Assembly (NCBI GenBank): GCA_038063455.1
Contig: JBBTVB010000002.1
Location: forward strand, 193,296 to 257,295
Direction of reading: 5' to 3'
Origin: Patescibacteria group bacterium
GTDB taxonomy: Bacteria; Patescibacteriota; Patescibacteriia; PEXW01
Length of the DNA stretch: 64,000 bases
Shown here: one piece after another, positions 1,538 to 44,737 of the stretch
Position numbering within the stretch: position 1 is the stretch's first letter
Layout of the letters: each line of letters begins with the position of its first letter
Program-made: the position numbers and the translations under genes
Notes under the pieces: model-generated
What the model saw: the letters and a program-made list of their open reading frames with translations, nothing else
Database searches by the model: none
Told to the model about the DNA's origin: nothing

Positions 1538-2713
1538 ATGTCTCTTTTTATACCTCGATATACGATGGATAAAATCCTGATTGTCCTCCTCACCGCGGTC
1601 GGTTGCCTGCAGGTCCAACCGGTGCTGGCGGCAGCAACCGACAATTCTACGCATACGGTGGAAATGACCATCGTCGCGGCAGATATTCGAGGGGAGAAAA
1701 TATACCAGACCAAGCACCTTACGCTCGACGTGCAGACCTGGCGCGTGGAGCAGTGGAAAGAACTGCGACTGCCGGCCGAATGGGCAAACACTGGTTTGTA
1801 TGTCGAACTCTGGGATGCGACGAATCATCGCATTCCACAGTTTCGGGCGAGCCGGCTGCACGTATCGACCCTCGACCTCTCGACCCTGGATGCATCGCTC
1901 TACCCCTCATTCCGGGTCATCGTCTTCCAGGCGAAAAGTCCGGTGTCCTGGCCGGCCATGGCTGTAAGCGTTACCTACACCGAATCGCTAAATACTCGAT
2001 TAATCATCCTGCTATCGCTGATCCTCCTTGCTCTTTCCCTGTTGATTATTGGGAGTATAAAATTTCGCGTGACGCCGCACGTTATCTGGCAGACGACGGT
2101 GGCGGCCATTCGCGTACCGCTAGCTGAGGTGGGTGGGCAGCACATGGTTGGTTTGGCGTGGATGGTATGTGTCTGGTCAGCGGTATTCGCCGTACCCTTG
2201 GGGAGTTTCGCCGGCTGGCAGCAAGTCGTGTACCTTTTCATAAAAATCCCCTTTCTGTTTTTCTGCTCGTTTCTTATTTCCGGGCTGGCAAATTTCGTCC
2301 TGGCCAAGCTGATCGGCGTTACTCTATCTGTCCGCAGCTTATTTGCAAATGCAGTACAGGTCTTAAGTGTTACAGCAATAAGCCTGGCCAGCGTCAGTCC
2401 CATCCTGTGGTGGCTCTTGGCGACCAACCAAGATCATGATGCGGTCCTCATCTGGGCTGTGTTGCTTTTTGGTTGCGCCTATGTCGTGGGGGTGTTCAGG
2501 CTCTACCGACAGTACCGGTTAGCCGGATCGAAACGCCCGCTCGTGCCGGTACTTCTGTGGATGGTGCTCTACGGCGTCGTCCTGCTGCAACTCGGGTGGA
2601 TGCTGCGGCCGTGGGTCGGGGTACTGGACCCGGTCTATCACACCATCCCCTTCTCGCGCCTGTACAGCGGAAACGTCTTTGAAGAAATTCTCGCCACATT
2701 AAACCGACTCTAA
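1538..2713 (+). CDS. membrane protein, unknown function (signal-like N-terminus, extracytoplasmic domain, multi-pass C-terminal half)
   Basis: 391-aa ORF tightly coupled to the previous gene. Hydrophobic N-terminal helix, ~150-aa soluble region, then multiple TM helices. Confidence 0.6.
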   Translation: MSLFIPRYTMDKILIVLLTAVGCLQVQPVLAAATDNSTHTVEMTIVAADIRGEKIYQTKHLTLDVQTWRVEQWKELRLPAEWANTGLYVELWDATNHRIPQFRASRLHVSTLDLSTLDASLYPSFRVIVFQAKSPVSWPAMAVSVTYTESLNTRLIILLSLILLALSLLIIGSIKFRVTPHVIWQTTVAAIRVPLAEVGGQHMVGLAWMVCVWSAVFAVPLGSFAGWQQVVYLFIKIPFLFFCSFLISGLANFVLAKLIGVTLSVRSLFANAVQVLSVTAISLASVSPILWWLLATNQDHDAVLIWAVLLFGCAYVVGVFRLYRQYRLAGSKRPLVPVLLWMVLYGVVLLQLGWMLRPWVGVLDPVYHTIPFSRLYSGNVFEEILATLNRL

Positions 2714-37828: not shown

Positions 37829-37865
37829 TGTAGGTACCATGCGTTGACGAGAGTCGCCGTTCTTA

Positions 37866-39563
37866 CTAGAATGGCCCAGCGTTAACCTTATGCTGGGCTA
37901 TTTGAAAAACCGTCGTAGCGGGGTGGCCATAGCTCAATGGTAGAGCACTGGTTTGTGGTACCAGTGGTTGTGGGTTCGAGTCCCATTGGCCACCCCAGGA
38001 GGCACTTAATTGATCTTTATGGTTAATTACGTACTTCCTGGGGTGACGACCACCCCCGTGCGCAGAAGCCCGTCCCAAAAGGACGGGTTTGTGCGTTTTA
38101 TGGGCAGCAGACTGTTGTAGGAGGGCTCTAAAAAGGCGGCTGGGTATTGCTGTCGAGATGTTATACCCATCCACCTCAAAACGCTCCCAAAAGAGCGCTA
38201 GGAGGTGCTTCTTCCTATCTGACGAGGCATTACGGTATGCAAGAGCAACATTCCTAGATAACTCAAGCGATTGGCATACTACATCCAGGGAATTATCCCT
38301 CACTCGCTCTAACTTACTGATGTGCTGTTCATTTTTTTCAAGTTCTAGACGCAAGCTATTCCTAATACGCTGAAAATCATCGTCATCAATAAGCCCGTCT
38401 AAAAGTTTACGTTCTAAAGTGTCTCGTTTTCGCTTTAACTCTGCTTGTTGTGCATGCAGTCCTATCCGTTCGTTTTCAATGATCTGCTTTTTTGAATCAA
38501 AGTATCTCTTTGCCTTGGTCGTTACTCTGCCAATAAACGCCTCGGTAAACTGAACTTGCTCAAATAACCTTCCAACTTCAGTCTCAAGATCAAGAGTGCC
38601 TGCATACTTTTTGCTTGGACAAAATCCTCGTTTGGCACAATGATAGTATGCTGCGTGTTTTCTAGCGTGTTTCTCTGCAACTAAACGATGACTACAAGTC
38701 GCACAATAAAGTACCCCGCGAAGCAGAAAATCATGTTTACGACGCCGATTAGCAAAACGGTTGTGTACAGCCATGACATTCTGGACTTGATCAAAAGTCA
38801 TGCTATCAATCAGTGCTGGATGTCCTCCATTCTTAAGATGGATACTGCCCCACCGAAGCTCACCTAGATAAAATCTATTCTTCAAAAGCTCATTGAGTCT
38901 ACTGTGCTGAAGTTTTTTTCCAGTTCTAGAGCGAAGGTTCTGGTCATAAAGCAAATCCCTTAAGTAAGCTACGGAGTAACGACCTGTAGCATAAAGTCGG
39001 AAGGCTTCGCGAATCCTTGTAGCAACTGGTTCATCTAATGAAACTACCCGGTCGCCTTGATTGTTAGTATGATTTTTATACCCTAAAGGTGCTTTCCCAG
39101 GTAGCCAACCTTTCCGAGCCTTTTCTTCCATACCCTTAAGTGTCTTGCGCGCAGTGATGTCTGATTGAAATTGGTTAACACTGGCAACGATGGTATCAAT
39201 CATCTGTCCTTCGGGAGTATCGTCGATAGTCGGCTGTGATGCAGAAATAAGCTGAACTTTGTGTTTTTTTAATATCGCTCGTATTGCTAGATGATCTTGT
39301 GTATTGCGTGCTAGACGATCTGTATCTTGAACCACAACAGCGGTAACTGTCAGATCTTTCTGGCATAACTCTATCATCTCTTGGAGCGCAGCTCTTTTCA
39401 TTGAAGATGCGCTTTTACCTGCATCTTCAAAGACTCGCATTACATGGTATCCCAAATCAGTTGCCAGCTTAGAACAAATCGATTTCTGTGCAGCCAACGA
39501 ATGGTGTCCTTCACCAGCTTGCTCGTCAGTTGAAACGCGAATGTAAATGACCGCATTTTTCAT
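37866..39563 (-). CDS. large serine recombinase (integrase)
   Basis: Resolvase/invertase catalytic domain (VIYIRVSTDEQ..DRLARN), recombinase domain, zinc ribbon (CATCSHRL..YYHCAKRGFC) and coiled coil. The last ~95 codons run antisense through the tRNA-His terminator and tRNA (..WDSNPQPLVPQTSALPLSYGHP..) and are probably read-through. Confidence 0.9.
   Translation of the reverse strand: MKNAVIYIRVSTDEQAGEGHHSLAAQKSICSKLATDLGYHVMRVFEDAGKSASSMKRAALQEMIELCQKDLTVTAVVVQDTDRLARNTQDHLAIRAILKKHKVQLISASQPTIDDTPEGQMIDTIVASVNQFQSDITARKTLKGMEEKARKGWLPGKAPLGYKNHTNNQGDRVVSLDEPVATRIREAFRLYATGRYSVAYLRDLLYDQNLRSRTGKKLQHSRLNELLKNRFYLGELRWGSIHLKNGGHPALIDSMTFDQVQNVMAVHNRFANRRRKHDFLLRGVLYCATCSHRLVAEKHARKHAAYYHCAKRGFCPSKKYAGTLDLETEVGRLFEQVQFTEAFIGRVTTKAKRYFDSKKQIIENERIGLHAQQAELKRKRDTLERKLLDGLIDDDDFQRIRNSLRLELEKNEQHISKLERVRDNSLDVVCQSLELSRNVALAYRNASSDRKKHLLALFWERFEVDGYNISTAIPSRLFRALLQQSAAHKTHKPVLLGRASAHGGGRHPRKYVINHKDQLSASWGGQWDSNPQPLVPQTSALPLSYGHPATTVFQIAQHKVNAGPF
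37922..37997 (+). tRNA. tRNA-His (anticodon GTG) with encoded G-1 and CCA
   Basis: Hand-folded. G-1 plus acceptor GTGGCCA/TGGCCAC, anticodon arm CTGGT-TTGTGGT-ACCAG, T-arm GTGGG-TTCGAGT-CCCAT, discriminator C. Confidence 0.9.
38069..38100 (+). terminator. hairpin plus T-rich tract downstream of tRNA-His
   Basis: CCCGTCC-CAAAA-GGACGGG followed by TTTGTGCGTTTTA. Confidence 0.5.
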
Positions 39564-39733
39564 ATCTTCTTTGCCTTTTGAATAAAATCCTCGAGATCAT
39601 TTCGATCCACCCGCCATTGGCCAATTTTTGCAGCCATGAGCCGCTTACCTTGTATGTATCTTAATATCGTCCTTTGGCTTACTCGAAGGGTTTCTGCAAC
39701 TTCTTCAATGGTGAGAAATCTGCTCTTATTTTT
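39560..39733 (-). CDS. excisionase/MerR-like HTH protein (start codon unclear)
   Basis: The open frame encodes ..FLTIEEVAETLRVSQRTILRYIQGKRLMAAKIGQWRVDRNDLEDFIQKAKKI. Its stop overlaps the recombinase ATG (ATATGA). The only upstream ATG (39737) is in another frame. Confidence 0.45.
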   Translation of the reverse strand, partial: KNKSRFLTIEEVAETLRVSQRTILRYIQGKRLMAAKIGQWRVDRNDLEDFIQKAKKI

Positions 39734-39767
39734 CATAGTTTTTATAATACTGGGCTATACAGATATG

Positions 39768-40133
39768 TCAATTTTTGTCATGTTTTGGCAATAGACCTTG
39801 AAGAGTCTTAGGCATTTTCCCCATGATGAACCTAGGAGCATTGGTCAACGAGTGAGGCAACTTACGTCCCTGAATTAAGTCTTCTTCGGCAATAAGCCTT
39901 TCGACCGCTTCATGGCTAACCCGACGAATGATCTTATTGGCAAGATTTTTCCCTACCCCCAATTGCCGGCCCATTTCGATACAAGTAATTTTTCGGTTTA
40001 CTTGCATAATTTGCGATGCAACTAGCTTAAGTTCATCGAGTTTTTTTATAGGAAGCTTGGGCATAGGCATCGTTATATGTACCTCATTATCCTTCTTGTC
40101 CCTCTTTAAGCGCATCATATTTTTCCAAACCAT
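39768..40133 (-). CDS. hypothetical protein with HTH-like segment
   Basis: ..ITCIEMGRQLGVGKNLANKIIRRV.. Start uncertain (40133, 40115 or 40070). AT-rich. Confidence 0.5.
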   Translation of the reverse strand: MVWKNMMRLKRDKKDNEVHITMPMPKLPIKKLDELKLVASQIMQVNRKITCIEMGRQLGVGKNLANKIIRRVSHEAVERLIAEEDLIQGRKLPHSLTNAPRFIMGKMPKTLQGLLPKHDKN

Positions 40134-40560
40134 TAAGCATTTGTTTACGCGCTAGGCTTATTGAATTAGATTTTATTTCATTACCTTTAGTCGACGTCTG
40201 GTTGGCATCTGGTTGCGGAATGGTTGTCATGGGAGCGGGAATGTAGCTCGTTTTCCTGCGGTCTGAACGTATTATCTGGTACTTCATCCAATTGGGGTGG
40301 AATCCATATCGCTCACCATCTACTTCATAAAGCGTTATCAGGGCTGATTTTTCAATCACGTTTATCATTTTTTGTACGCGAGTAATACCATACTTTTCCC
40401 TTGGAAAAACATTTGCTCGGATCAATGATGGATCAGCTCTGAACCTACCATCATCATCGGCAAAAGTTATCAAGCCGATATATAGTAGTCGTTCTTGCGG
40501 TCTTAGATCGGTAACCTTTTTAGACTGCCAAATCGTTGTGTGGATCATTCTTCTAGTCAT
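40087..40560 (-). CDS. phage/plasmid replication-organizer-like protein (DUF4373/DnaD-like N-terminus)
   Basis: IWQSKKVTDLRPQERLLYIGLITFADDDGRFRADPSLIRANVFP resembles the N-terminal domain of phage replisome organizers. Assignment from memory only. Confidence 0.45.
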   Translation of the reverse strand: MTRRMIHTTIWQSKKVTDLRPQERLLYIGLITFADDDGRFRADPSLIRANVFPREKYGITRVQKMINVIEKSALITLYEVDGERYGFHPNWMKYQIIRSDRRKTSYIPAPMTTIPQPDANQTSTKGNEIKSNSISLARKQMLNGLEKYDALKEGQEG

Positions 40561-40563
40561 ATT

Positions 40564-40809
40564 TTATAAGTTATCCATATATAACTTTGCCTTAAGTTCA
40601 CGCAGAATAAGGGCATATTTTCTTGCATCTACCATTGCAGTCTGACCAAAATTGTAGTTTTGAACTAGCCCCTCACGCTCTTGCCTATCAATAAAAACAA
40701 ATAGCGCCCGTTTAGGGTTCGTGCGGTCAATGTTCACAAGCTCAAGGCCTTCATTTAGAAGATAGGCCGTCAGGTAAAAGCTACTTGTTTTGTAATGTTT
40801 TTCGCTCAT
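40564..40809 (-). CDS. DUF5659-like small protein
   Basis: 81 aa. TSSFYLTAYLLNEGLELVNIDRTNPKRALFVFIDRQERE pattern. Confidence 0.6.
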   Translation of the reverse strand: MSEKHYKTSSFYLTAYLLNEGLELVNIDRTNPKRALFVFIDRQEREGLVQNYNFGQTAMVDARKYALILRELKAKLYMDNL

Positions 40810-40989
40810 ATATATCCTTATCTTGAAGTTGCTCGGTCACTTGATCGATAAAAAACTCTGCCAGCAGTTGTGCTGCGTTTTCTAAAATATCTTCGTTTTC
40901 TTCTGATTTTCCAGGCATTCTTATTCAAATAAAAAATCTACGATAAATCGTAGAGTCCTGGAGTGTTTTTTTATGTTCTAAATTGTTTT

Positions 40990-41604
40990 TTACGAAGAGT
41001 CGGCACCTTTATAGCGAACCTGCTTCCCTTTATACTCAAAAAGTTCTTTATCAATTTTGAAATCTTTTTTTATCTTGCTATTAAGCCTATAAACAATTTG
41101 ACGAACATCTGCTACTTGTTTTTTAGTTGGCTCGCCTCCCTTGATTGAGGTCCATACTTCATCAGCATTTTGAGAATTGCTGATGCCATTATCAATGATA
41201 AACTTTGCAAGCTGATAAATGTCCGTATCTTGGTCAAACTCACTTTCAAACATTCCCAGTTTCAACAAACCTGGTCTTTTAATTTGGAGCATTCCCCCAT
41301 ACTTTTTTAAAGCATACCGATGTGCTCTTGCCTCGTTAGCTGATTTAAAAACTTCATATTCTTTTTTAAAAATGTCTGCTCTTAAGAATTGAATGTTAAA
41401 GCCCAGACCCTCAATCTTTCGTAGCACTTTTATCACCCTCCGATTTTTAAGACTTCTGATATGTGTATCGACAAAATCTGGTTGAACCCTAAAACTTTTA
41501 TACCCAACAAAAATATCTGCATCATCAGGGGATGCTTCCTTTAGCTCTTGCAAAACATAATAAACCTGCCATTTCTTTTCTATCGGGTCCATATTCTTAT
41601 TCAA
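40990..41604 (-). CDS. hypothetical protein (possible C-terminal winged-helix)
   Basis: 204-aa AT-rich ORF. ..KKQVADVRQIVYRLNSKIKK.. resembles OmpR-type recognition-helix regions. No family assigned. Confidence 0.5.
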   Translation of the reverse strand: MNKNMDPIEKKWQVYYVLQELKEASPDDADIFVGYKSFRVQPDFVDTHIRSLKNRRVIKVLRKIEGLGFNIQFLRADIFKKEYEVFKSANEARAHRYALKKYGGMLQIKRPGLLKLGMFESEFDQDTDIYQLAKFIIDNGISNSQNADEVWTSIKGGEPTKKQVADVRQIVYRLNSKIKKDFKIDKELFEYKGKQVRYKGADSS

Positions 41605-41637
41605 AGAATTACTTAATATACTTTAGCCTTTTATGGA

Positions 41638-43422
41638 TTGCTAAACAACAAGCCAGGGAGTAGAATCTATCAGAATATGGATACTCAAATACTTCAACAA
41701 GCAACAAGTACCACGAATGAAATCCTTAGTAACTGTCTGGCAGGCCTATCAATGGTCAAGCTATGCCATTATGACCCTAGTAACCCAACGGTTTACTTTA
41801 GTCTAGGAGAGGGAATCGCTGCATTGGGGCTGATCTTTGCCGCTTTCCAGCTACGCAAGCCGATTTGGAATATGACTCTTGACATAAGAGGTCGTGCCTT
41901 AAGAAATCTCCATTGGCTTTTTGTGGTACTTGGTCTTTTATCTGTATTGGTTGCAGCGCTTTTACCTCAATTTTTGATTCTTCATCCAACTATCTTTCAA
42001 TACCCAATTTTCTGGGAGATGATAGCGTTAGTATCATTTGCTGCCGGCGCTTTTTCTTTTTATTGGTTTGGAACACATCGGAAAGGACTACTTACTAGAA
42101 AAAACGCTGAAAGATTCTTCCAGGTACTCCTACATGGGGCTGCTGTTACACGAGAAAACAATGCGGAAGATGTAGTGAAGTTAACGGGGGCTAATCTCAA
42201 AAAAATCATTCAATTTGCATCTGAAGTTCCAAGGTTTCCTAATGACAGCTGGAATGCTAAAGAAGAGGCTGGCAGTTACTGCTTATCAATTCTAAGTGTC
42301 GTTCTTACTGAACCAGAAATCATTAAACATATCGCAACATCACGGATTGACTTTCTTTTGCATTTAATTGGGGCTATAAGAGAGGGGAAACTTACCCACC
42401 CAGACACTCGTATATTGTTTCGTGAGATTTCAAAGGAGCTATTTGTAAATCCATCATCTTACTTATATCGACAGCTTCAATATGCTGGCCTGGGTTACGA
42501 AAAACCAGTCTATACCGCCTTGTTTCGAGATCAGATTGTATTAGATAACTATCGCCCGCTACAAGAATGGTATTACTGGAAAAAAGATGTTATTGATCGA
42601 AAGTATCTTGAGGTATATCTACAGGCATTGGAAACGGCTATTGAGGGTTACTGGTTTGATGAGAACGCTGGCCTTGATCATAGTTTATTCGCCTCAGCAT
42701 TTAGGCAACTTTCCGATGCCGCACAGAGCGTAGCTACGGCGGGAAGAAAAGAAGGTGTCCTACCTGGTACTGATACTTTCTGGTTATTACACGACATCAG
42801 TTCCTTCTTTGGACGCACTTTCCCACTGGCATACAATAACGCGGTAGAAAAAGGGAAGGTGAAAAAGACCGATATCAATGTTCAGGTAAGTCGAGATGGA
42901 GATAGTGACTCAATTACAGCCTATTTTATTGATGGCCTATTTGGATATTTTGAAGCCCTAAGTTACATAGATGACAAAGATGATGAGGTCAGATCACTCG
43001 CTATAGACGCAACAAACGCTGTAATAGATAAGTTTTCAGGAGATCATCAGGGCTATGCCAATATGGAGCAAAGACTGCTTAAGCTTTTTTGGGAACGCTT
43101 CGAGGAAAACGTAGCTGGCGGTTACGCGCCAATGATTAGAGTTTACATATCGTTGATTCTTTTCCCCATAGGAACCTACTCGCCCGAACAACAGCTTGAA
43201 AGAAATAGACTGATTAGATTCTTGTACGAAAAGGTGGGGCCGATTCTTAGAGCCGACCCTTCAAAAACAAGCAGATTCTTACCAATTTTTGTTGTATTCA
43301 ATAAGAAAACGAAAAAGTTTGAATGGGTAATGCATGGTGGTGGCAAGGTTGCATTGATTGAGGGGACTACAGCAACAGTTAAACCGCCTCGCCAAGCGCT
43401 CCACCGCCCAATTAAAAGATAA
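41638..43422 (+). CDS. hypothetical membrane protein (about 4 N-terminal TM helices plus ~430-aa helical soluble domain)
   Basis: 594-aa ORF with a TTG start at 41638 or an ATG at 41677. No motif recognised. Confidence 0.6.
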   Translation: MLNNKPGSRIYQNMDTQILQQATSTTNEILSNCLAGLSMVKLCHYDPSNPTVYFSLGEGIAALGLIFAAFQLRKPIWNMTLDIRGRALRNLHWLFVVLGLLSVLVAALLPQFLILHPTIFQYPIFWEMIALVSFAAGAFSFYWFGTHRKGLLTRKNAERFFQVLLHGAAVTRENNAEDVVKLTGANLKKIIQFASEVPRFPNDSWNAKEEAGSYCLSILSVVLTEPEIIKHIATSRIDFLLHLIGAIREGKLTHPDTRILFREISKELFVNPSSYLYRQLQYAGLGYEKPVYTALFRDQIVLDNYRPLQEWYYWKKDVIDRKYLEVYLQALETAIEGYWFDENAGLDHSLFASAFRQLSDAAQSVATAGRKEGVLPGTDTFWLLHDISSFFGRTFPLAYNNAVEKGKVKKTDINVQVSRDGDSDSITAYFIDGLFGYFEALSYIDDKDDEVRSLAIDATNAVIDKFSGDHQGYANMEQRLLKLFWERFEENVAGGYAPMIRVYISLILFPIGTYSPEQQLERNRLIRFLYEKVGPILRADPSKTSRFLPIFVVFNKKTKKFEWVMHGGGKVALIEGTTATVKPPRQALHRPIKR

Positions 43423-43539
43423 AATATGGGTCGTTACATTTGATTGTAGCCTGTCTTTACCTTAGAATTACTTAAGATTCAACCTTTAAGGAAGTAACCG
43501 ATCAACACACTCTAACCTACACCAATCTAGCTTTGCCTA

Positions 43540-43680
43540 AACTCCGCTCTGCGGAGCATGGCATAAAACCCCAGTACAGGAACGACAGCTCGTCGTTCAG
43601 CTACCTGTACTGGGTCATACCCCGAAAGGGATATGGGCGGCCGAAAGGTTGCCGTGCTGGCGGCGAGCTTTTGTGTTTAG
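43540..43680 (+). ncRNA. candidate structured RNA (four consecutive hairpins, two with GAAA tetraloops)
   Basis: CTCCGC-TCT-GCGGAG; CCCAGTACAGG[AACGAC-AGCTC-GTCGTT]..CCTGTACTGGG; CATACCC-GAAA-GGGATATG; GGCGGCC-GAAA-GGTTGCC; then a T-rich tract. Confidence 0.3.
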
Positions 43681-43733
43681 AAGTTGCTCATCAAACTCAC
43701 TCACAATTCACTCATTAAACAAGGAGATTTTAT

Positions 43734-44393
43734 ATGGAAGGACAAGTATCGGGCCTAAAAAAGTTTTCCTCAACTAGGGCGGGCAAGTGGTCAATTGGTG
43801 CGGCAATTCTTTTTATCTTTGCATTGATTGGGAGCTTGTCAGGAAAAAACAATAACTCATCATCTACCCAGTCGAGTAGCCCACAAAATATCAACGTTAC
43901 ACAAACTAACGGGGCAAGCCAGCAGCCAGTAGAAACCCCTAAACAAATACTCGAGCAAAGACTCACGGCCGCAATAAAGCGTACTGGGAGCACAGATGTT
44001 AGTTACGGTGGCCTAAAAATTGAAAAATCTGATGTTGACAGGCCAGCAGATACGCAGATGATTACAGTGAACGTAGATATATCAAGTTTTTACAATAAAA
44101 ATGGTCTACTCAAAGACACGGGAAAATTGTCGTCTTCAATCTTCAGTCTTGTTTATGCAATCCCTAATATCAAAGCCTACGATGTTTTTGTAAATTACAA
44201 TGGTGAGATAACGGATAAATATGGGAACAAAAAAAATGACACGATTCTTGTGTACGCAATTGATCAGGCGACCTATAAGAAAGTAAATTGGCAAAACTTC
44301 GACCAATCTACTCTTTGTGATTTCCTAAACAACGAATCAAAGGGAACGGGAACATTCAATACAGCATGTAATGTCCTTACAAATATCCAATGA
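43734..44393 (+). CDS. membrane-anchored/secreted hypothetical protein
   Basis: AAGGAG lies 8 nt before the ATG. N-terminal hydrophobic helix, S/N/Q-rich linker and ~130-aa domain. AT-rich. Confidence 0.65.
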   Translation: MEGQVSGLKKFSSTRAGKWSIGAAILFIFALIGSLSGKNNNSSSTQSSSPQNINVTQTNGASQQPVETPKQILEQRLTAAIKRTGSTDVSYGGLKIEKSDVDRPADTQMITVNVDISSFYNKNGLLKDTGKLSSSIFSLVYAIPNIKAYDVFVNYNGEITDKYGNKKNDTILVYAIDQATYKKVNWQNFDQSTLCDFLNNESKGTGTFNTACNVLTNIQ

Positions 44394-44539
44394 CGATTGA
44401 GGAATGCAGAAAAGTAGACCCCAGTCTAAATAACCTACCAGATGAAGAGCTAGGTCGGATTATCGATAACCTCTACGGCCTAGCGGAGCTAGCGCTTGAT
44501 GTTTGGCTTATTGAGAAGTATAAAACTCCCCCTAGGTAG
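44390..44539 (+). CDS. possible 49-aa protein
   Basis: ATGA overlap with the previous stop. MTIEECRKVDPSLNNLPDEELGRIIDNLYGLAELALDVWLIEKYKTPPR. Below the track cutoff. Confidence 0.3.
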   Translation: MTIEECRKVDPSLNNLPDEELGRIIDNLYGLAELALDVWLIEKYKTPPR

Positions 44540-44700
44540 CTAGTGTATATCGCCCCCTCCAACTTGCCCCACAGTAGGCCGGATCAGAACGTCAACCAAG
44601 CTCCTAACTTGGCTTAAATAGGCCGAATCTTGTAATGCTTCGAGGAGAAGGGTCATATTGCTTCTGGAACTGCGACCCCACTGTGATGGTTGTACATATG

Positions 44701-44723
44701 ACGCGCCTAATCGGCGCGTTTTT
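44701..44723 (+). terminator. rho-independent terminator
   Basis: ACGCGCC-TAATC-GGCGCGT followed by TTTT. Confidence 0.6.
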
Positions 44724-44737
44724 GCTATCATACCTGC

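Follow-up and report, generated by a model that had tools for sequence, protein, structure and literature searches.

Characterised phage-side attachment sites (attP) of large serine recombinases (LSRs) are imperfect palindromes, and in the literature searched we found no description of serine integrases with attP inside their own gene (int). Among tyrosine recombinases, the SSV-type integrases of archaeal viruses and plasmids are called 'suicidal' (PMC7253208, PMC8371274); on integration the gene is reported to be split into two inactive pseudogene halves (PMC7253208). Here we analyse a stretch of 64,000 nucleotides from a Patescibacteria group bacterium (contig JBBTVB010000002.1, positions 193,296 to 257,295 of the forward strand; hereafter the window), and within it a compositionally deviant segment next to a tRNA-His gene. 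We conclude, with a probability of roughly 0.8, that window positions 37998–44680 constitute an integrative mobile element of a Kerfeldbacteria-like patescibacterial chromosome, inserted at the CCA end of tRNA-His by its own LSR; this estimate takes in the hairpin, module and satellite or remnant readings that are developed below.

The element measures 6,683 bp, lies between tRNA-His and a host gene for a 533-aa protein, and has a GC content of 0.413 as against 0.543 for the remainder of the window (37998–44680 excluded); no other 6,683-bp stretch of the window falls below 0.51. The initial annotation of this DNA had proposed an AT-richer integrated element driven by a serine recombinase, and both parts of that proposal are borne out, the composition by these figures and the integrated state by empty sites in three relatives (L007, L008 and L009). 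Its junctions and immediate surroundings are as follows:

37844–37872, plus strand: host promoter-like site of tRNA-His (TTGACG-17-TAGAAT), outside the element; the same hexamers stand upstream of tRNA-His in L007
37923–37997, plus strand: host tRNA-His(gtg), called by ARAGORN, intact through its encoded CCA; its 3' part forms the B arm of the bacterial attachment site (attB) and of attL
37992–37997: attL core ACCCCA, made up of the last acceptor bases, discriminator C73 and CCA, defined by junction comparison with L007, L008 and L009
44675–44680: attR core ACCCCA; the host B' arm CTGTGATGG... restarts at 44681
44700–44720, plus strand: host terminator-like hairpin (stem GACGCGCC/GGCGCGT), outside the element and at the same place in the insert-free L007

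Relatives of the 533-aa host protein, for which an exact look-up gave no record, occur in four species-representative genomes. In the three closest, namely L007 (a Patescibacteria metagenome-assembled genome, 89% protein identity), L008 (Candidatus Kerfeldbacteria, 75%) and L009 (66%), tRNA-His lies directly upstream of the homologue at a distance of 68–352 bp and the 6.7-kb insert is missing; the sigma-70 gene of the other flank is syntenic in L007 and L008 too. DNA identity to L007 amounts to 97.9% and ends exactly at 37997, and similarity restarts at 44681, where the window reads CTGTGATGG and L007 CTGTGACGG. Comparison of the window with all three relatives puts the left junction at 37997/37998 and the right junction at 44680/44681. 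The tRNA ends in ...TTGGCCACCCCA in the window and is followed by GGAGGCACTT on the element side, the far junction reads ...GGAACTGCGACCCCA/CTGTGATGGTTG..., and in L007 the tRNA is followed by CTGTGACGGTTA. Only 6 bp are common to both junctions and no tRNA segment is duplicated; the mature tRNA-His sequence is unaltered by the insertion and its Rfam tRNA score of 70.2 bits equals that of the L007 tRNA. The crossover is evidently within this 6-bp ACCCCA core, the shortness of which fits the LSR expectation of short att identity.

These junctions differ from those first drawn. The presumed start near 37866 is merely the stop codon of the integrase open reading frame (ORF) and lies inside host DNA, the interval 37866–37997 being tRNA-His and its promoter; the right boundary, placed near 44725 from composition, moves to 44680/44681; and the att direct repeats that the annotation could not find are present as ACCCCA at both ends. 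A comparison of half-sites had been advised between 38100–38160 and 44540–44735, but the junctions lie elsewhere and the real core lacks dyad symmetry. The terminator said to close the element at 44701–44723 does exist as a hairpin at 44700–44720, but in host DNA; as a part of the element it is ruled out, for it is kept in the insert-free L007. To all appearance it is the host's native tRNA-His terminator, which now stands 3' of the element's plus-strand genes.

An alternative is that nothing was inserted, the AT-rich block being either ancestral and lost in the relatives or an assembly chimera. All contigs that carry the block are identical, probably from the same data, and no same-species empty site was found, which is what such a history would leave. 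However, three relatives at 66–89% protein identity all lack the block at the syntenic site, where the annotation had allowed that relatives might prove to share its genes; the junctions are base-exact with a common core, the far junction codes for an in-frame integrase tail, and the same architecture recurs in unrelated samples (L002, L003, L004 and L015). This alternative is effectively refuted already and we give it next to no weight. An insertion that adjoins the 3' end of a tRNA and is missing at the syntenic site in relatives, with int abutting attL, a junction repeat and a deviant composition, is what is expected of an integrative element at a tRNA gene and of a genomic island.

The same tRNA gene bears other traces in the relatives. 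In L007 (4978–5113) a remnant of ~105 bp behind tRNA-His is bounded by a 30-bp repeat that comprises the tRNA 3' end and downstream sequence, and in L009 (1292–1556) the 3' part of tRNA-His is partially repeated twice more, over 44 bp and 23 bp. Scars with repeats of this length look like sites of the tyrosine-integrase type; in this lineage tRNA-His would thus be a hot spot at which elements of more than one kind integrate.

The int gene occupies the left end of the element, and part of it appears to reside at the right end:

37866–39563, minus strand: LSR ORF in the integrated state, 565 aa, of which residues 1–524 are element-encoded and 525–565 are read-through
44540–44674, minus strand: displaced 3' end of int (P arm of attP), 44 codons and a stop codon

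The serine integrase that the annotation had named is indeed present as this 565-aa ORF, with Pfam matches to Resolvase (PF00239, 1e-32, residues 4–152), Recombinase (PF07508, 5e-12) and, weakly, Zn_ribbon_recom (5e-4); the last scores 20.8 bits, under its cutoff of 25.3, but nearly all homologues have it as a precomputed match. Among solved structures the closest are the N-terminal domain of TP901-1 Int (1e-13) and the C-terminal domain of A118 Int (4kis, 4e-6, residues 199–430). The catalytic S11 lies in the motif YIRVSTDEQ, and R9, D82, R83 and R86 as well as C287, C290 and C309 are invariant among 12 homologues; long helices span 338–418 in a homologue structure model. A resolvase catalytic domain is thus joined to a recombinase domain, zinc ribbon and coiled coil, the domain make-up of an LSR. 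The 12 homologues, at 43–64% identity, share a tail that ends in an invariant W-G pair, and the W-G codons, TGGGGT, are the reverse complement of the ACCCCA core. No integrase with more than ~30% identity to the window enzyme was found in the GenBank phages (50,697 records), and a search of IMG/VR with the integrase alignment yielded one true relative, L015.

The ORF meets no stop before 37866. Its last 41 codons are antisense to tRNA-His and its promoter, and its stop codon (37866–37868) falls within the promoter-like site of the tRNA. If the ends of the element are joined as a circle, the ORF continues in frame after W523-G524, across the core and into 44674–44540 of the minus strand; the reconstructed circular form of Int would be 568 aa long and end in WG-RSSRSNMTLLLEALQDSAYLSQVRSLVDVLIRPTVGQVGGGDIH. 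The predicted circular junction reads ...GGAACTGCG-ACCCCA-GGAGGCAC..., and the reconstructed attP and attB read ...CATATTGCTTCTGGAACTGCGACCCCAGGAGGCACTTAATTGATC... and ...GAGTCCCATTGGCCACCCCACTGTGATGGTTGTACATATG..., respectively. Integration would move the last 44 int codons to the far end of the element, where they would be parted from the gene, and put 41 antisense-tRNA read-through residues in their place. That the far segment is an integrase tail is indicated by a profile made from 53 homologues with intact tails, the window itself being left out: out of 1,705 six-frame pieces of the window it matched a single one, 44755–44543 on the minus strand, beginning from the core W (E 2e-4; next E > 2). 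The LSR is the sole recombinase inside the element, and its displaced C-terminal tail stands in frame at the opposite junction, which ties this enzyme to the insertion.

The same layout is found in the closest relative, L002, which comes from an unrelated sample and has an integrase with 62% identity. The L002 element is ~8.6 kb long, has the TGGGGT core at both its junctions and carries a displaced tail, WGRNTRDKLTPLLTILEDTAYLQELQALLTTL, behind CGCAC/TGGGGT/CGCAAT; this tail is 44% identical to that of the window (E 1e-10). The int 3' end overlaps tRNA-His in antisense in L003, L004 and L015. In L021 it overlaps another tRNA-like 3' fragment (T-arm, acceptor strand and CCA), cut by the contig end, with the W codon again antisense to a CCA. 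The clade as a whole therefore appears to target the CCA ends of tRNA genes and to carry attP inside int. In the host flank of L002, just outside attR, a tRNA T-arm/acceptor-like fragment, GGAGTTCGATTCCCGCCTGGGGGTAGCC (2590–2617, plus strand), was not called by ARAGORN.

Among the best 120 homologues the tail is intact in 75, split at W in 36 and unclear in 9; when split, the ORF either stops within six residues (21/36) or runs on into an antisense-tRNA-like ...DSNP/DSNL/ELNP (15/36). The intact-tail members that were inspected sit in plasmid-like contexts or in ones resembling integrative conjugative elements (ICEs), with no tRNA at the int 3' end. In an AlphaFold2 model of one intact homologue, P0021, the tail after W (residues 541–570) is helical with a pLDDT of 84–93, and the linker before the core (residues 491–535) is disordered with a pLDDT of 37–46.

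In L019 (4400–6938), 2.2 kb downstream of an integrase with intact tail, TGGGGT recurs together with P arm and tail coding, the two copies enclosing a gene with an AIRS domain, and L011 and L012 share nearly the same backbone with different defence cargo downstream of int (KAP NTPase and OLD in one, SMODS and TIR in the other). This pattern looks like the insertion or exchange of cassettes at the attP core.

The pre-core linker of int is constrained in an unusual manner. In a comparison of third codon positions among nine integrase genes, third-position identity is 0.25–0.45 along int (mean 0.38), even where amino-acid identity reaches 0.9; at window residues ~488–523 it rises to 0.5–0.78 with an amino-acid identity of just 0.35–0.6. 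High third-position identity together with low amino-acid identity implies that this stretch of ~35 residues is constrained as nucleotides rather than as protein. Three potential hairpins lie here on the strand opposite to int:

37992–38044, plus strand: H3, a hairpin or palindrome of 21–22 pairs, in which the core ACCCCA at the 5' edge pairs with a TGGGGT ~45 nt downstream
38040–38056, plus strand: H2, GGGGTG-N5-CACCCC, conserved in seven of eight aligned tails; in L002 the spacer is longer and CACCC stands in place of CACCCC
38060–38100, plus strand: H1, a G+C-rich hairpin followed by TTTGTGCGTTTT, terminator-like and antisense to the Int codons HKPVLLGRA

The folds were assessed with RNAalifold and with pair counts on eight homologous tails in tRNA-sense orientation. 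The H3 helix, whose opposite strand codes for Int residues ~508–524 (HP...SASWG), is 93.5% paired, with seven pairs changed on both sides; the conserved helix of H1 has 15 pairs and is 90.8% paired, and a terminator scan matches H1 at 38066–38090 with 10 pairs. For H3 and H1 together, 92.6% of cells are paired as against 29–45% with slid partners, and 12 hairpin pairs are changed on both sides as against 1–3 with slid partners, a number that none of 500 shuffles reaches. The non-Watson–Crick cells comprise 39 G:U on the tRNA-sense strand versus 3 on the int-sense strand, and the interval 37986–38106 of the plus strand folds at -68 kcal/mol (z -8.8) in tRNA sense and at -56 kcal/mol (z -6.1) in int sense. 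The strand bias of G:U points to an RNA structure on the strand antisense to int; once the element is integrated, this RNA forms the 3' trailer of tRNA-His. H2 shares its GGGGTG with the 3' arm of H3, so that the two are alternative pairings; the first six pairs of H2 equal those of the precursor tRNA-His acceptor helix, G-1:C73 included. Searched for as a DNA pattern, H1 has no match in IMG/VR, and its sole metagenome match is a contig already in our set of loci.

H3, H2 and H1 might alternatively be double-stranded DNA sites, accessory or regulatory, for Int, for a 58-aa helix–turn–helix (HTH) protein encoded next to it or for a repressor. The size and outer motifs of H3 recall an LSR attP (~53 bp, ACCCCA...TGGGGT), H2 is a motif of fixed spacing that is conserved rather than covarying, and with a core devoid of dyad symmetry extra sites might be needed. 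Yet a duplex DNA site should show no strand bias, whereas the count is 39 G:T cells on the tRNA-sense strand against 3 A:C; the tRNA-sense fold is 12 kcal/mol more stable, and the stems covary while pairing stays. We therefore see DNA sites as an improbable account, at odds of about one in four in our judgement, and prefer RNA hairpins. In the integrated state, H3 and H1 could furnish tRNA-His with a replacement structured trailer and terminator embedded in the disordered linker of the integrase, a role suggested by the displacement of the native terminator by 6.7 kb to 44700–44720. In the circular state they may stop the convergent plus-strand arm (the 594-aa gene, a LOOT RNA and the genes for 219 and 49 aa), and in both states they would shield int from antisense transcription.

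Several observations weigh against the locus as we read it, that is, as an LSR-driven element with a structured int tail. No excised circle and no same-species empty site was seen, and the 23-mer across the attP junction is absent from the JGI metagenomes, a collection without this organism; the other contigs with the element (L001, L005 and L006) have 100% identical DNA and hence are not independent. The reconstructed attP and attB lack dyad symmetry about any core dinucleotide (at most 9/24 matches; null 6.1 +/- 2.1), and the only palindrome of attP size, H3, is not centred on the crossover but has it at one end. Several homologues have only weak U-tracts after H1, which leaves its role as a terminator uncertain, and covariation could be judged from just eight sequences of ~6 lineages. 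A Rep-like protein of the element consists of an N-terminal domain only, which makes autonomous replication doubtful. As to symmetry, H3 as an attP with a central crossover is ruled out, since no integrated copy has a broken H3 and host CTGTGATGG directly adjoins ACCCCA at attR. Either the recognition sites of this clade are asymmetric to an unusual degree, or accessory sites on the DNA take part.

The remaining gene content of the element is as follows:

39560–39736, minus strand: excisionase-family HTH protein (HTH_17), 58 aa, its stop codon overlapping the int start codon
39744–39771, minus strand: near-consensus sigma-70-type promoter, TTGACA-16-TATTAT (11/12, a consensus match only), upstream of the hth58-int pair
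39768–40133, minus strand: 121-aa ORF with a 47-nt overlap with the 3' end of the 157-aa ORF
40087–40560, minus strand: Rep-like protein, 157 aa, of the phage replication-initiation or replisome-organizer kind, N-terminal half only
40564–40809, minus strand: DUF5659 protein, 81 aa (PF18903, 3.8e-11)
40781–40918, minus strand: 45-aa ORF with a weak homologue beside DUF5659 in L003 (37% identity, E 2e-4)
40990–41604, minus strand: 204-aa ORF, from the ORF list
41638–43422, plus strand: orphan membrane protein, 594 aa, or 581 aa if the start is ATG 41677
43534–43653, plus strand: LOOT RNA (RF03000), 86.7 bits against a gathering score of 46.4, covering model positions 1–121 of 121
43734–44393, plus strand: 219-aa protein, hydrophobic at its N-terminus (anchor or signal); no other gene of the element has an AGGAG ribosome binding site
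44390–44539, plus strand: 49-aa ORF, from the ORF list

Most of the genes named in the initial annotation are recovered, including the 204-aa unknown and the 49-aa ORF. The Xis-like HTH ORF is the 58-aa protein, which matches PF12728 (2.8e-15), TIGR01764 (41.9 bits, above the cutoff of 28.8) and the excisionases phrog_66 / phrog_2907, and which has a homologue upstream of int in L002; it is likely, as a candidate, to be a directionality factor or regulator. The replication-organizer-like label suits the 157-aa protein insofar as it fits phage initiators (phrog_1408, 3.1e-24), but only their N-terminal half (profile positions 5–135 of 302). The 'HTH protein' label given to the 121-aa ORF has to be dropped, as neither it nor the 204-aa ORF has a match in Pfam, PHROGs, PADLOC or NCBIfam. 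There is no evidence that the 157-aa and 121-aa ORFs are one frameshifted Rep gene: the 121-aa ORF belongs to no family and neither has a homologue in related loci. The DUF5659 protein stands by its Pfam match and finds homologues by tblastn in L003 (57% identity) and L004 (47%). The 594-aa membrane protein has the expected N-terminal hydrophobic helices (residues 52–70 and 91–109) and just four homologues (32–57% identity) among 5.8e9 proteins, none annotated or with a Pfam domain. A single N-terminal hydrophobic segment agrees with the secreted nature proposed for the 219-aa protein, which also matches phrog_8263 (2e-8); for the cargo proteins PADLOC and NCBIfam gave nothing. The strong AGGAG-type ribosome binding sites ascribed to the element as a whole did not materialise: AGGAG precedes one of its ten genes (219 aa), AGGA the DUF5659 gene, and neither the other eight.

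The structured-RNA candidate of the annotation turned out to be a full-length LOOT RNA. This motif was described by Weinberg et al. 2017 (PMC5737381) and is listed in Rfam 14 as a 'metagenomic-based RNA' (PMC7779021); in the literature searched we found neither a function nor a carrier for it. A terminator-like hairpin (43648–43666) follows directly and is conserved downstream of LOOT in relatives. LOOT also occurs, above the gathering score, in L002, L004 and L020; in the window, L002 and L004 it lies on the strand that does not carry int, and the ORFs after its hairpin are unrelated. A terminator-like hairpin of its own and unrelated ORFs behind it fit a stand-alone small RNA carried by these elements. 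In contrast to its Rfam entry, LOOT here sits on tRNA-His-integrating LSR elements and on a viral contig with a terminase gene, assigned to Patescibacteria or related to them; LOOT can thereby be placed on mobile elements and phages of this group, which narrows the search for its function. The Logan contig of L001/L006, an independent assembly of the same genome, ends at window position 43487, between the 594-aa gene and LOOT, an assembly break that may reflect LOOT being common to related elements in the sample.

What kind of element this is can be judged from its genes and its relatives. No element ORF matches a terminase, capsid, tail, lysis, relaxase, transfer or defence family in Pfam, PHROGs, PADLOC or NCBIfam; with no virion genes and 6.7 kb only it is not a complete prophage, and with no relaxase or transfer-protein match the protein families searched give no sign of an integrative conjugative or mobilisable element. 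Phage-like relatives combine its modules with packaging genes: L003 has a related integrase at tRNA-His with DUF5659, ParB-methylase and terminase, L004 a related integrase at tRNA-His with DUF5659, a small-terminase-like HTH protein and LOOT, and L020, an IMG/VR contig, has LOOT beside terminase and ParB-methylase. Because int, DUF5659, LOOT and the tRNA-His site are common to these relatives and virion, packaging and transfer genes are missing, the element is best regarded as a probable miniature relative of temperate Patescibacteria phages and elements, be it a satellite-like hitchhiker or a young remnant.

A decayed prophage, inserted by the LSR and later stripped of packaging, virion and replication genes so that it persists as a fixed island, would explain why no terminase, capsid, tail or relaxase is matched in any ORF, why the Rep-like protein is half of the phage profile and overlaps the 121-aa ORF, and why relatives of its int/DUF5659 (L003) and LOOT (L020) segments carry terminase and ParB-methylase. 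Against such loss of mobility, the ORFs are all intact and closely spaced, neither junction core is damaged, and the 44-codon displaced tail, which the integrated element cannot translate as part of Int, has stayed open and in frame and matches the family motif; L002 (~8.6 kb) is another small element built in this way. Intact ORFs, intact cores and an open displaced tail argue against old decay, and an immobile remnant is a tentative option, held at somewhat under one chance in three.

The gene content is also compatible with a phage satellite in the broad sense (PICI/P4-like). A satellite or integrative mobilisable element packaged by a helper Patescibacteria phage of the L003/L020 type would have this small size (6.7 kb; 8.6 kb in L002), these int, Xis-like and Rep-like genes without structural ones, and DUF5659, a 45-aa ORF and LOOT in common with phage-like contigs. 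However, no packaging-redirection, capsid-remodelling or cos/pac feature is recognisable, the 64-kb window holds no helper phage and the cargo proteins are orphans, and we judge helper-dependent packaging to be rather doubtful, a little more so than decay. The preferred description remains that of a miniature integrative element related to temperate phages.

In itself the element is nothing unusual, being small, integrative and located at a tRNA gene, a new member of a familiar class; what is new are the tail swap with attP in int, the dual-coded antisense hairpins and the association with LOOT. Tentatively, and with the balance of our judgement against it, we propose that the tail swap is a built-in record of the free versus the integrated state, which could bias directionality or stability beside or instead of a recombination directionality factor; that the linker hairpins replace the trailer and terminator of the tRNA and, through the tRNA promoter, may bring int under antisense control while the element is integrated; that LOOT is a small RNA belonging to the mobile elements and phages found in candidate-phyla-radiation (CPR) bacteria; and that the LSR clade belongs mainly to uncultured bacteria, Patescibacteria included. 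The locus introduces an unstudied serine-integrase clade that combines tRNA CCA-end targeting, attP inside int and coding shared with antisense hairpins, and it documents, in the small genomes of CPR bacteria, mobile DNA that looks active and a hot spot of integration. Should the exchanged tail influence activity, this would amount to a new mode of control over directionality, the central practical problem for serine integrases as genome-engineering tools, and with att sites defined to the base this idea is directly testable.

Compared with the serine integrases of phages and ICEs (A118/LI Int, TP901-1 Int, phiC31 Int, Bxb1 Int, CcrAB and XisF), the window enzyme has the same RVSTxxQ serine, recombinase domain, Cys-rich zinc ribbon and long coiled coil, and its element likewise has int at the edge by att, a junction identity of a few bp and a small HTH gene beside int. 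In contrast to them, the element targets a tRNA CCA end, its attP lies inside the int ORF with the C-terminal 44 residues exchanged on integration, its core lacks dyad symmetry, and the pre-core linker of ~35 residues is dual-coded with antisense RNA hairpins. With the tRNA-gene islands and prophages of tyrosine integrases (Islander/TIGER-type) it shares a tRNA 3' end as target, an intact tRNA, atypical composition, absence from relatives and use of a hot spot, but in theirs the duplicated 3' part of the tRNA is tens of bases long, as in the 30–44-bp repeats of L007 and L009. The closest parallel is with the SSV-type tyrosine integrases of archaeal viruses and plasmids, in which the site is likewise within the int ORF, the target is a tRNA and the int gene is partitioned on integration. 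Unlike these, the window enzyme is a bacterial serine recombinase rather than an archaeal tyrosine recombinase, and residues 1–524 with all recognised domains stay together in one ORF, only the C-terminal helical tail being detached.

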